Origin: an uncultured Methanosarcinales archaeon
GTDB lineage: Archaea; Nanobdellota; Nanobdellia; Woesearchaeales; GW2011-AR4
DNA: 64,000 nt
Assembly: GCA_964650285.1 (NCBI GenBank)
Contig: CAZYSP010000004.1
Span: 354 to 64,353, forward strand
Direction of reading: 5' to 3'
Numbering within the stretch: the stretch's first letter is position 1; the number at the start of each line of letters is the position of its first letter. The translations under genes and the position numbers were made by a program. Below the pieces are notes generated by a model. It made no database searches. It had not been told where the DNA came from and saw only the letters and a list, made by a program, of their open reading frames with translations. Below are positions 26,232 to 29,725 of this stretch, one piece after another.

Positions 26232-26561
26232 ATGGAGCCAATACAAATCATAGGGATAAAAGATCTAGATGAAATGGAAGTAGAGTCTATTAACAGGCTT
26301 GCCAACAGATATTATGGCAAAGTCCAGAGGGAAATTAAAAACATCACTTCTTTAGTGGTTCATATAAAGAGTATTAATAAAGAAGGAAGGCAGAAAATTT
26401 ATTCGGTCCATGTAAAAGTAATTGCTCCAACTAAAGTATTTGCTTCTACAAAAACAGAAGATTGGAATTTAGAGAAAGCATTACATGGCTCTTTTAGAAA
26501 TATTATAAGAGAAATGCAGCACAGACTGCATACAGACGATCAGCATGACAAAACCCGTTAA
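26232..26561 (+). CDS. HPF/RaiA-like fold protein (paralog 2)
   Basis: LVVHIK...YSVHVKV...DWNLEKALHGSFRNI pattern. Confidence 0.6.
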   Translation: MEPIQIIGIKDLDEMEVESINRLANRYYGKVQREIKNITSLVVHIKSINKEGRQKIYSVHVKVIAPTKVFASTKTEDWNLEKALHGSFRNIIREMQHRLHTDDQHDKTR

Positions 26562-27006
26562 TTCTAAAATTGCAACCTTATGCCAGATTGAAGGATTGAG
26601 TTGTTTCGGCTGCTGCGGAAATGATTACAGCCATAAAAAAAAGCTGATGAGAGACATAAGAAAAAATACATTTGAGTTCAAAAAAACTAATTCAGTTAGT
26701 TCTTTCATGACCAGAACTACAGACTTAAGATCTTCTGGTATTTGCGCTAATGTTGTTTTCAAAGATGGAAAATTTTTCTGCCCAGGACATCCTACATTGC
26801 ATTATGGCAGGGATTATAGGGAGATAGATCCGGATTGTGAAAGAGATAAAGATGACGGATGCAAAGCTTATATTTTATTTCAAAAGTGGAGCAAAGAAAA
26901 GCAAAAACAATTTCTGGATTTTATCAAATCAAAAAAACTGGATAGCTATATTTATTCTATAAAGATGGACAATAATTCTTTGCTGAAAGAGTTTGAGAAA
27001 AAATAG
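26545..27006 (+). CDS. Cys-rich protein, YkgJ-like Fe-S/Zn cluster candidate
   Basis: CQIEGLSCFGCC...C...CPGH...C...C. Confidence 0.6.
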   Translation: MTKPVNSKIATLCQIEGLSCFGCCGNDYSHKKKLMRDIRKNTFEFKKTNSVSSFMTRTTDLRSSGICANVVFKDGKFFCPGHPTLHYGRDYREIDPDCERDKDDGCKAYILFQKWSKEKQKQFLDFIKSKKLDSYIYSIKMDNNSLLKEFEKK

Positions 27007-27078
27007 CGGGGAGAAGATTTGAACTTCCGACCTGAGGGTTATGAGCCCTCCGGGCACTCCTGACTGCCCTACCCCGCT
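27004..27078 (-). tRNA. Initiator tRNA-Met(CAU)
   Basis: AGCGGGG start with A1-U72; GAGGG/CCCUC anticodon stem (three G-C pairs) around CU-CAU-AA. Confidence 0.95.
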
Positions 27079-27127
27079 GTATAAAAAATAAGAATTAATG
27101 CTTCTTTAAAAAGATTGCTGATAAAAA

Positions 27128-27508
27128 CTATCCTCTTTTCCCAATAATCTGAACATTTCCTTTAAAGTCAACAAAAGTGATTTGATCTCCTTCATTAAGT
27201 TCATTACGCAGTTCTTCTGGAGCACTGGCATCTACTGTTTCATAACTTACATTGTCCATTATCTGCACTTTATCATCTGTTTTTGAAATAACCTGGCCTG
27301 TTTTCTTTACTATATCAACAATCTCTACCTTGTCTGTATGATGCATATTTATACTTCTTTCTCCTTTTCCTGTTAGGTCTTTAATGAACAGCTTTAGTTT
27401 GCTGTGAGAATGAGTGCCATAAACAACTATTTCTTTTCTTATAACCTGGACAGGTTCATTATTCTGGATAAAGTAACTTCCCCTTTTAAGTTCTGATGCA
27501 GATGCCAT
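27128..27508 (-). CDS. eif5a: aIF5A/eIF5A homolog lacking the hypusine lysine
   Basis: LKRGSYF...EPVQV, KVEIVDIVKKTGQV...VQIMD..SYET; GTHS in place of GKHG. Confidence 0.85.
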   Translation of the reverse strand: MASASELKRGSYFIQNNEPVQVIRKEIVVYGTHSHSKLKLFIKDLTGKGERSINMHHTDKVEIVDIVKKTGQVISKTDDKVQIMDNVSYETVDASAPEELRNELNEGDQITFVDFKGNVQIIGKRG

Positions 27509-27517
27509 TTTAAAAAA

Positions 27518-27632
27518 CGCCGAGGGTGAGATTTGAACTCACGTGCCCCGAAGGACAAAGGATTTTTATGACAGTCCTTGAGGAAAATAGTCCTAGCAAT
27601 CCTTCGCAATGGCCAGGCTATGCGACCTCGGC
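27518..27632 (-). tRNA. tRNA-Ser(GCU) with 30-nt intron at 37/38 (27564-27593)
   Basis: GCCGAGG/CCUCGGC acceptor, G73, long variable arm GUCC-UUCG-GGGC, AAGGA/UCCUU anticodon stem. Confidence 0.88.
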
Positions 27633-27727: not shown

Positions 27728-29725
27728 ATGAAAAAAATATTGTCGTTTTTAATGTTTATTTTTCTTTTATCTAATTCAATTTATGCACAGAATGGTGATG
27801 ATTGGTTCTACAATAGTCAAAACCTTATCATAAATATTGATGTTTCTTCAGAAGCGAAAATAGAGCCAAAATCCTCTGATTACAGTGTAAAATACATTAA
27901 TATAAACCTGTCTCATTATCCTTATGAGAGCTTTAATCAAAAAGTAATTAATTTTGAAATCGAGCCAGAAGCAGATATAGAAAGCAATGCAATACTCTAT
28001 AACTGGCAGAACCCAAGAAACAGGGTAACTTTCGGATACAAAACAACAATCAGGACAAACAGCAATATCATTGAAGTAAAAGACAAAATAAAATTTCCTG
28101 TCCTGGATCTGCCAGAAGAGCTTGAGCAATATACACAGCCAAGCGAAATAATTAATTCTGATGACGAGGATATAATCGGTTTTGCTTCAGAGATTGCAGA
28201 AGGAGAAGATGATTTATACATAGTTGTGCATAAAATAGCAGAATGGACAAAAAGCAACATAGAGTATGATTTAAGCACTTTAACTGAAAAATCAAGTTTA
28301 AAAGCTTCATGGGTTTTAGACAACAGGCAGGGTGTCTGTGATGAATTAACTTCTTTGTTTATTGCAATGCTGAGATCCTTAGGAATACCCGGGAAATTTG
28401 TATCAGGAGTTGCTTATACAGAAAATGAATTATTTCCGGAAAACTGGGGAAGTCATGGATGGGCAGAAATATATTTTCCCGGTTATGGGTGGATTCCATA
28501 TGATGTAACTTACGGCCAGTTTGGCTACATTGACCCAACGCATGTAAAGCTAAAAGAATCTGTTGACAGTGGTGAGCCTTCTGCACAATACAGGTGGGTG
28601 GGGAATATAGACTTAGAAACAAAAGATTTAGACATTGACGCTTCTTTACAGGAAACAATTGGAAGAATAAAAAACCCTGTCAGCCTGGATGTTAATGTTT
28701 TAAAGCAAAACATTGGCTTTGGCTCCTATAATCTTATAGAAGTTATTTTAGAGAATCTTGAAGATTACTATATTTCATCAGAGATTTACATATCAAAACC
28801 AGAAGAAGTCGAATTAACAGAAGATTTTATTAAAAATATCTTATTAAAGCCAAATGAAAAGAAAAGTGTTTTCTGGATTGTTAAATTAACAGATAATTTA
28901 CAGAAAAATTTCATTTATACATTCCCCATGACTGTAAGCACATTAAGGGGCTCTAAAGAAGATACAGAGTTTGAATCAAAAAAAGGAGATATTACTTACT
29001 CGTTTGAGGAAATAAATAATATACTGGGACAAAAAAAAGAGGAGGAAAAAAAGATTTATTCCAGGGATGTAAAAATTGACTGCAATATCGATCAAAAAGA
29101 ATTCTATTATTATGAAAAAGCCCTGCTTAAATGCAAAATTAAAAATATTGGAAATACTGTTTTAAAATCTCTGAATGTATGTTTTGAATCTGAATGCTCT
29201 AAAGCAGATTTAGGGATTGTGCAGGAAAAAAGCTTTAACTATACTGTTGAAAAATCTGTAACAGGAAACCAGGAATCAATCTTTAAAGTAAAAAATGCTG
29301 TCGTTTCAAAAGCAGAATATATAGGGTACAATATATTGGATGAACCGGAAATAAAAATAAATGAAATAGAATCACCTGATGACATTGAATACAATGATCA
29401 ATTCAAGATTAGTTTCTTATTAAGCAAAGAATCAGCATCAATCCCATATAATCTGGAAATCACCTTGTCCCGGAATAACTTCAAAAAAACATGGACTCTA
29501 AAAGAGCTTTCTGAAGACAGGAAATTTGTAATTAACCTGCTTGGCAAAAACTTAAGGAAAGGGCTTAATGAATTTGATATTATTGTCAAATATGAAGATG
29601 GAAATGCAAGGCCTTATGAAACAAAAGAAACATTTTCTGTTGAGCTTACTAACGTTACTCTAATCCAGAATATTATGTTGGCATTAAACCAGTTTGTATT
29701 GTTTCTTGAGAATTTAGTGTCGTGA
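27728..29725 (+). CDS. Secreted transglutaminase-like domain protein
   Basis: Signal peptide; GVCDEL, HGWAE, WIPYD triad. Confidence 0.88.
   Translation: MKKILSFLMFIFLLSNSIYAQNGDDWFYNSQNLIINIDVSSEAKIEPKSSDYSVKYININLSHYPYESFNQKVINFEIEPEADIESNAILYNWQNPRNRVTFGYKTTIRTNSNIIEVKDKIKFPVLDLPEELEQYTQPSEIINSDDEDIIGFASEIAEGEDDLYIVVHKIAEWTKSNIEYDLSTLTEKSSLKASWVLDNRQGVCDELTSLFIAMLRSLGIPGKFVSGVAYTENELFPENWGSHGWAEIYFPGYGWIPYDVTYGQFGYIDPTHVKLKESVDSGEPSAQYRWVGNIDLETKDLDIDASLQETIGRIKNPVSLDVNVLKQNIGFGSYNLIEVILENLEDYYISSEIYISKPEEVELTEDFIKNILLKPNEKKSVFWIVKLTDNLQKNFIYTFPMTVSTLRGSKEDTEFESKKGDITYSFEEINNILGQKKEEEKKIYSRDVKIDCNIDQKEFYYYEKALLKCKIKNIGNTVLKSLNVCFESECSKADLGIVQEKSFNYTVEKSVTGNQESIFKVKNAVVSKAEYIGYNILDEPEIKINEIESPDDIEYNDQFKISFLLSKESASIPYNLEITLSRNNFKKTWTLKELSEDRKFVINLLGKNLRKGLNEFDIIVKYEDGNARPYETKETFSVELTNVTLIQNIMLALNQFVLFLENLVS

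Follow-up and report, generated by a model that had tools for sequence, protein, structure and literature searches.

A threonine-tipped aIF5A paralog of Woesearchaeota is a candidate hypusine-independent accessory ribosome factor

INTRODUCTION

Hypusine is regarded as a defining, indispensable feature of IF5A in archaea and eukaryotes. What, then, could an aIF5A-like protein do if its loop lacks the lysine that receives this modification? The question is raised by a gene on the minus strand of the 64,000-nt stretch of archaeal DNA analysed here (the window). The original prediction described its product as an aIF5A homolog without the hypusine-site lysine, and took it to be either a modification-independent factor or a specialised paralog. 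We examined the fold of the protein, the column in which the lysine should lie, the rest of the host genome, the distribution and conservation of related genes and their neighbourhoods, and compared the family with known systems.

RESULTS

An aIF5A-like protein with threonine in the hypusine-lysine column

The gene and its parts are located as follows.

27128..27508, minus strand: coding sequence of the aIF5A paralog, 126 aa, ATG start, stop codon within the span (from the list of open reading frames)
27311..27508, minus strand: N-terminal SH3-like (KOW) domain, about residues 1-66, bearing the beta3-beta4 hairpin; boundary approximate
27131..27310, minus strand: C-terminal OB domain, about residues 67-126, from the strands of the AlphaFold2 model; archaeal aIF5A signature retained
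27398..27418, minus strand: loop tip G31-T32-H33-S34-H35-S36-K37, counterpart of canonical G-K-H-G-H-A-K
27413..27415, minus strand: Thr32 codon ACT, read from the sequence, in the column of the hypusine-accepting Lys

The reading frame agrees exactly with the one first proposed, 126 codons from an ATG. Its product scores below the membership cut-offs of both curated aIF5A models (NF003076 of NCBIfam, 75.5 bits versus 138; TIGR00037, 57.6 bits versus 75.45) and below the threshold of Pfam IF5A-like_N (19.2 versus 27.1); weak IF5A-like_N and EFP_N matches cover residues 3–46. Among solved structures the best match is archaeal aIF5A 1iz6 (E 2e-13), followed by 1bkb, 8put and 1eif. The AlphaFold2 model, computed from an alignment of 22 members of the paralog family, has a pLDDT of 92.5. 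Its top Foldseek matches are 1bkb, 1iz6, 8put and 2eif (probability 1.00, TM 0.65–0.72), and the matches also include ribosome-bound eIF5A and EF-P, with TM values of 0.65–0.82 over archaeal aIF5A, eIF5A and EF-P. By both model and structural matches the protein has the two-domain architecture of aIF5A (SH3-like/KOW plus OB, about 130 aa). DSSP assigns strands 12–15, 18–30, 35–43 and 50–55 to the N-terminal domain of the model; those of the OB domain are 68–76, 81–85, 91–95, 109–115 and 118–124. The archaeal aIF5A signature of the OB domain, Q..MD...YET, is present as Q82, M84, D85, Y89, E90 and T91.

The beta3-beta4 loop of the paralog reads YGTHSHSK. In the N-domain, the query segment VVYGTHSHSKL aligns without gaps on SSPGKHGSAKA, SKTGKHGSAKA and SKPGKHGGAKA of solved archaeal aIF5As, and these structure-based alignments place Thr32 in the column of the hypusine lysine. 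When 60 paralogs and 53 canonical archaeal aIF5As are aligned with yeast eIF5A in MAFFT, the same correspondence appears (T32 to yeast K51). The predicted loss of the hypusine-site lysine is thus borne out, and the G-K-H-G loop has threonine at this position in all 120 close homologs and all 60 species loci. Nor does a neighbouring lysine occupy the tip, an outcome that would have spoken against the original prediction: residues 26–36 contain none, and K37 is the second Lys of GKHGxAK, which is found in all canonical factors too and is not a tip residue. The paralog cannot be hypusinated at position 32. We also considered H35 as a novelty of the paralog and rejected it, since canonical Woesearchaeal and yeast factors likewise read G-K-H-G-H-A-K.

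The canonical hypusine system is present in the same genome

The host assembly (927 kb, i.e. 0.93 Mb, in 36 contigs; 90.6% complete) encodes a second, canonical aIF5A at C10:36234-36599. Its loop is SRPGKHGHAK, and it passes both curated cut-offs (155.5 bits versus 138 for NF003076; 135.7 bits for TIGR00037). A deoxyhypusine synthase (DHS) lies at C3:43400-44284 and passes its own (TIGR00321, 320.9 versus 304.25). The genome search for a second aIF5A and for DHS that had been proposed with the original prediction therefore found both above curated cut-offs, and the canonical hypusine system is present. Of the two alternatives offered at the outset, this supports the specialised paralog; with an intact hypusine system in the genome, the modification-independent factor in its strong form is left without support.

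The paralogs form one clade with a patchy distribution in a single order

Of the best 80 loci in the GTDB species-representative collection, 59 have the Thr loop. They derive from marine, groundwater and sediment samples, and most bear the title Woesearchaeota, Nanoarchaeota or Nanoarchaeia; some have the generic MAG label 'uncultured Methanosarcinales', and a single one, L042, has the label Gammaproteobacteria. When 301 genomes from across the window's order were searched with a profile, the scores were bimodal, with paralogs at 132 bits or more and canonical copies at no more than about 101 bits. The paralog is found in 34 of these 301 genomes (about 11%; about 26 of 136 families), and a canonical copy accompanies it in 31 of the 34. 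Re-searching 30 paralog-bearing genomes with NF003076 recovered exactly one canonical copy and one paralog in every one of them: the canonical copies score 142–162 bits, each with the loop S[RK][PS]GKHGH[AS]K, and the paralogs score 54–94 bits. DHS is found in 31 of 33 paralog-bearing genomes.

The paralog occurs without a detectable canonical aIF5A in three genomes, G013 (95% complete), G164 (59%) and G261 (88%). All three have DHS (300–314 bits), and its retention suggests that the canonical gene is simply missing from these assemblies, probably through incompleteness. If the absence were real, DHS would be present there without its known substrate.

In a separate sample of 301 genomes from the phylum, all 14 paralog matches fall in one order, and no paralog was found in the other orders sampled. 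Within the window's genus, 8 of 13 genomes have the gene, absences being counted in MAGs and hence subject to incompleteness; it is absent from G007, a 95%-complete genome of the same genus, which indicates that the paralog is dispensable. A maximum-likelihood tree of 113 sequences unites the paralogs in one clade apart from other archaea (SH-aLRT 100) and the canonical Woesearchaeal aIF5As in another (support 91); the tree rests on 127 columns, too few for the deeper branching or for the age of the duplication. The paralogs are thus a monophyletic family with a patchy distribution in one order (Woesearchaeota/Nanoarchaeota).

The loop is the most conserved element and is under purifying selection

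A search of 5.8 billion proteins found 360 homologs of the paralog with intact frames. The best 120 of these 360 are 67–100% identical to it and either bear the names Woesearchaeota or Nanoarchaeota or come from TARA, JGI or ENA metagenome sources. NCBI records label the homologs 'hypothetical protein', and JGI generically 'translation initiation factor 5A'. Along the loop G31-T32-H33-S34-H35-S36-K37-L38-K39, each position is identical in 118–120 of the 120, with three single exceptions at positions 35 and 36. With an exhaustive HMMER search of cluster representatives the family reaches down to about 35% identity, and the loop stays G-T-H-(S/M/C/T)-H-(S/T)-K. In an alignment of 22 diverse members that reaches to 34% identity, full invariance is confined to M1, T32, H33, H35, K37, M84, D85 and E90. 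The loop is the most conserved element of the protein.

The invariant threonine is encoded by all four of its codons over the 60 species-level loci (ACT 16, ACC 15, ACA 10, ACG 19); together with the identity of the loop among homologs, this leaves no room for chance or sequencing error. The median pairwise dN/dS is 0.099 (79 pairs), an approximate ratio given that dS is near saturation. Codon turnover at Thr32 and a dN/dS of about 0.1 show that the gene is functional and that the threonine itself is selected.

More divergent relatives of 120–127 aa were also observed. Their loop tips read STH, SRH, SSH, SKH or GSH, or the loop is deleted altogether (P0138, P0142, P0143, P0150, P0151, P0156, P0165-P0175, P0219 and P0220; loci L132-L134). 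They come from short metagenome contigs, and a tree of poor resolution places them loosely on the side of the paralogs. Judged by their sequences, they appear to be a wider radiation of hypusine-less IF5A-like proteins, and the R, S and K tips and deleted loops suggest that at least some of this radiation would be tip-independent.

Residues kept and lost relative to canonical aIF5A

We compared 60 paralogs with 53 canonical archaeal aIF5As column by column. Invariants common to both groups are G10, G31, H33, K37, Q72, M84, D85, Y89, E90, T91 and G107; within the OB-domain signature, M84, D85, Y89, E90 and T91 are invariant or nearly so across the MAFFT alignment of paralogs and canonical factors. 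Three conserved positions switch between the canonical factors and the paralogs (S28 to V, K32 to T, Y112 to F), and four residues of the canonical factors, C20, P30, P64 and P97, are lost. In the loop, G-K-H-G-H-A-K becomes G-T-H-S-H-S/T-K: the His-His-Lys positions are kept, and Lys, Gly and Ala are replaced by hydroxyl residues. The basic residue two positions before the loop glycine is Val or Ala in the paralogs, so that two positive charges of the canonical loop, R/K29 and K32, are gone. The paralogs are also slightly more acidic overall (median pI 6.08 versus 6.83).

Contacts on the ribosome are described for the yeast eIF5A-80S complex, in which Arg27 touches the backbone of the P-tRNA, the loop backbone and basic side chains touch H74 and H93, hypusine touches A76, and domain II sits in the uL1 cleft (PMC4770232). 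Yeast numbering is that of the paralog plus 19, and yeast R27/K28 correspond to K8/R9 of the paralog. The retained domain-II signature, basic pair 8/9 and His-His-Lys positions suggest, by inference only, that the paralog still docks on the ribosome. The long cationic side chain is lost, and any action on the CCA end must therefore differ in detail: the side chain of threonine is too short to reach A76 of the P-tRNA, and stabilisation cannot be identical in detail to that given by hypusine.

Gene neighbourhood

The paralog lies between two tRNA genes.

27518-27632, minus strand: tRNA-Ser(GCU) with an intron (Rfam tRNA, 41 bits; ARAGORN with introns allowed)
27004-27078, minus strand: initiator-type tRNA-Met(CAU) (ARAGORN; Rfam, 59.4 bits)

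Both had been placed on the strand of the paralog in the original prediction, and ARAGORN and Rfam agree. The initiator marks of tRNA-Met(CAU), read from the sequence, are A1:U72 and the GGG/CCC anticodon stem. Between the 3' end of tRNA-Ser and the ATG of the paralog there are only 9 nt (27509-27517; coding strand, TTTTTTAAA), and 49 nt (27079-27127) follow the stop codon of the paralog before tRNA-iMet begins. The 9-nt spacer has no room for a promoter of its own, which makes a tRNA-mRNA-tRNA co-transcript possible; such a precursor might be cut by tRNA-end nucleases.

The 9-nt spacing recurs in locus L023, the only relative with tRNA-Ser directly upstream; in several other loci tRNA-Ser is further from the paralog. 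In L017-L023, L025 and L065 the initiator tRNA gene follows the paralog at a distance of about 50 nt; in L024 and L031 it is found within about 0.8 kb. We rejected the flanking tRNAs as a trait of the family: they are confined to a sub-clade of at least about 56–67% identity and absent in distant members, and so represent the synteny of one sub-clade. In L017, L020, L022, L023 and L065 the initiator tRNA-Met matches the window copy in two pieces 10–80 nt apart, and the ARAGORN calls at these sites are odd tRNAs with introns. In this clade the gene for initiator tRNA therefore seems to have introns at varying positions.

Beyond the tRNA-Met gene, on the plus strand, is an ORF at 26545-27006 for a Cys-rich protein of 153 aa (CFGCCGN...CPGHP motifs) without a Pfam family. 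Its stop codon shares 3 nt with the end of the tRNA-Met gene, which runs on the opposite strand, and homologs of the ORF adjoin the paralog in 6 related loci. An ORF of 109 aa with no significant Pfam match (26232-26561, plus strand) overlaps it by 17 nt and is kept beside it in 5 related loci; the overlap and the shared conservation suggest a two-gene unit. On the other side of the paralog, also on the plus strand, the ORF at 27728-29725 encodes a protein of 665 aa that combines a signal-like segment at its N terminus with a transglutaminase-core domain (PF01841, 92.7 bits).

Search for a modifying enzyme or a polyamine link

We clustered all ORFs around the 59 paralog loci and found no neighbour family in more than 14 of them. 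The commonest is the 665-aa transglutaminase-like protein (14 of 59 loci), which is confined to close relatives; a conserved operon partner or modifying enzyme was rejected on these grounds, and the neighbourhoods give no genomic hint of such an enzyme.

A second, divergent DHS-family gene was noted in the host genome (G000) outside the window, at C12:11251-12183 on the plus strand (338 aa; L002 1435-2451). It scores below all NCBIfam cut-offs, its nearest model being 'homospermidine biosynthesis protein' (127.8 bits), and is patchy among relatives, with a tandem pair in G031. We rejected it as the dedicated partner of the paralog: threonine has no amine to modify, and the two genes do not co-occur among 41 related genomes (strong orthologs of the DHS-like gene in G000, G001, G002, G007, G009, G010, G011, G020 and G031; paralog in G000, G001, G003, G004, G005, G008, G010, G011, G013, G014, G020, G021 and G024). 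No spermidine synthase above cut-off was found in the host genome (best 18 bits), and among relatives the sporadic occurrence of speE shows no relation to that of the paralog.

DISCUSSION

Comparison with known factors

The nearest known protein is canonical archaeal aIF5A itself (NF003076/TIGR00037; 1bkb, 1iz6, 1eif, 8put), which has the same length, the same SH3-like plus OB fold and a gapless alignment with the paralog. The two differ in the loop (S-R/K-P-G-K-H-G-H-A-K in canonical aIF5A versus V-V/A-Y/V-G-T-H-S-H-S/T-K), and the paralog is set apart by Thr in place of the hypusine Lys, by scores below the curated cut-offs and by its separate clade.

The nearest known situation is bacterial. 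EfpL (YeiP), which always accompanies EF-P and has a branch to itself, carries no modification at its tip and relieves a set of stalling motifs that overlaps with that of EF-P but differs from it (PMC13602936; PMC11611912). Like EfpL, the paralog forms a branch of its own (SH-aLRT 100), is patchy, stands beside the canonical factor (31 of 34 genomes in the order sample and 30 of 30 re-searched, the three exceptions being in assemblies 59–95% complete) and has a tip that the enzyme of the canonical factor cannot modify. It is not a homolog of EfpL itself: the EfpL structure 8s8u is only a distant fold match (TMt 0.42), and EfpL has three domains, an extended beta3-omega-beta4 loop and an Arg tip, whereas the paralog is a two-domain protein whose Thr-tipped loop has canonical length. 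The duplications arose independently, and the likeness is one of function by analogy rather than of membership. On that analogy, the paralog is most likely an archaeal counterpart of bacterial EfpL.

Variation of the tip has further precedent in bacteria, where EF-P tips with Asn, Gln, Met, Ser and Gly occur (PMC11611912). EF-P subfamilies with tips other than Lys or Arg, or with unmodified tips (e.g. the Actinobacterial PGKGP type), indicate that evolution can exchange both the residue at the tip and its modification. For archaea and eukaryotes, the 2024 EfpL paper gives the tip as restricted to Lys (PMC11611912), and the Thr-tipped clade is an exception to this statement. A 2026 review of anti-stalling factors lists EfpL as the sole paralog (PMC13602936). 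Our full-text literature search, incomplete in its coverage, found no account of an archaeal aIF5A paralog, of Woesearchaeota hypusine or of a Lys-less IF5A. The protein looks like a specialised helper factor of a kind undescribed in archaea.

A proposed role on the ribosome

Overall, we favour, at a probability of roughly 0.58, the reading that the gene encodes a functional, lineage-specific aIF5A paralog that cannot be hypusinated, exists alongside canonical aIF5A and DHS and, judging from its sequence, would serve as a hypusine-independent accessory ribosome factor in the manner of EfpL. As with aIF5A, EF-P and EfpL, the paralog would dock between the P and E sites, next to the P-site tRNA and with the L1 stalk at its side. 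This position is suggested by three kept features: the domain-II signature, the basic residues 8/9 and the H33/H35/K37 side of the loop. The loop would then reach towards the peptidyl-transferase centre, and its tip, short and rich in hydroxyl groups (T32, S34, S/T36), might stand in for the long cationic hypusine. Such an accessory factor would have another range of substrates or another condition of use. One option is that it acts in stalling contexts other than those served by hypusinated aIF5A; the other, that it may serve when the polyamine donor for hypusination is scarce, and this backup idea is speculative. Points that weigh against the ribosome-factor reading are the two lost loop charges, the missing P30, P64, P97 and C20, the slightly lower median pI, the short reach of threonine, the relatives with R, S or K tips or deleted loops, and the lack of any relation to spermidine synthase.

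Alternative explanations

The paralog might instead have left the ribosome altogether and act as an RNA-binding protein, an RNA chaperone, a ribonuclease or in some other non-translational use of the SH3 and OB domains. RNA binding and RNase activity are reported for archaeal aIF5A, and the fungal protein HEX-1, which evolved from eIF5A, offers a precedent: this Woronin-body paralog with the IF5A fold, in which duplication was followed by loss of the hypusine Lys, forms a crystalline lattice by self-assembly and plays no part in translation. IF5A activity is considered to require the missing residue, the branch of the family is long, C20, P30, P64 and P97 are gone, and its divergent relatives include some with deleted loops. 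However, the most conserved part of the paralog is precisely the loop that in homologs reaches the peptidyl-transferase centre, which would be unexpected if the ribosomal role had been given up, and the domain-II signature is still that of canonical aIF5A. Unlike the case of HEX-1, nothing in the paralog suggests self-assembly. We consider a role off the ribosome unlikely.

A variant of the ribosome-factor model holds that another modification of Thr32 or of a nearby Ser or His (e.g. O-linked glycosylation, phosphorylation or an adduct) replaces hypusine. The absolute invariance of T32 and the changes of K to T, G to S and A to S/T, which together make a hydroxyl-rich tip, would fit such a modification. 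So would the exchange of tip chemistry and enzyme among EF-P subfamilies, of which rhamnosyl-Arg and beta-lysyl-Lys are examples from different subfamilies (PMC11611912; PMC6544042). Against it, the 59 loci contain no conserved neighbour gene, the best candidate being the secreted transglutaminase-like protein of 14 close relatives; the second DHS-like gene does not track the paralog; and EfpL shows that an accessory paralog can work unmodified. Another modification in place of hypusine is rather improbable. The tryptic peptide that spans the tip of the paralog is EIVVYGTHSHSK.

It is comparably doubtful that the Thr32 tip, with S34 and S/T36, embodies a new hypusine-independent chemistry, whether a novel modification of the threonine or a direct contact of hydroxyl and imidazole groups with the CCA end. 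Under such a chemistry the paralog may act at a distinct step, for example the first peptide bond with initiator tRNA; in at least 9 species the gene for this tRNA follows that of the paralog after about 50 nt. Archaea would then have evolved a second way to activate an IF5A-type factor.

The paralog could also be a non-modifiable decoy that binds DHS or competes for the E site, and so regulates hypusination or the activity of canonical aIF5A. It keeps G31, H33, H35 and K37, most of the motif shown to DHS in the DHS-IF5A complexes 8put and 8a0e, both among the fold matches, and DHS is present in 31 of 33 paralog-bearing genomes. Yet DHS is equally frequent in genomes without the paralog, the two genes are not linked, and a decoy leaves unexplained why Thr specifically, rather than any non-Lys residue, is invariant; we regard this as very unlikely. 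Finally, a decaying duplicate or annotation artefact without function, to which the scores under the curated aIF5A cut-offs and the name 'hypothetical protein' of NCBI homologs might point, is effectively refuted by a dN/dS of about 0.1, 360 homologs with intact frames, a loop that is invariant despite synonymous codon turnover, and a confidently predicted fold.

Significance

The identity of the paralog explains the 'hypothetical protein' labels that annotation pipelines give to its homologs, and G-T-H-x-H-[ST]-K cleanly marks a sub-radiation of Woesearchaeota. One DPANN order maintains a Thr-tipped clade under purifying selection, in at least 59 species-level genomes, while the hypusine system is kept. 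The clade is a natural experiment both on a division of anti-stalling between two factors in archaea, as in bacteria with EfpL, and on the capabilities of the IF5A scaffold without hypusine.
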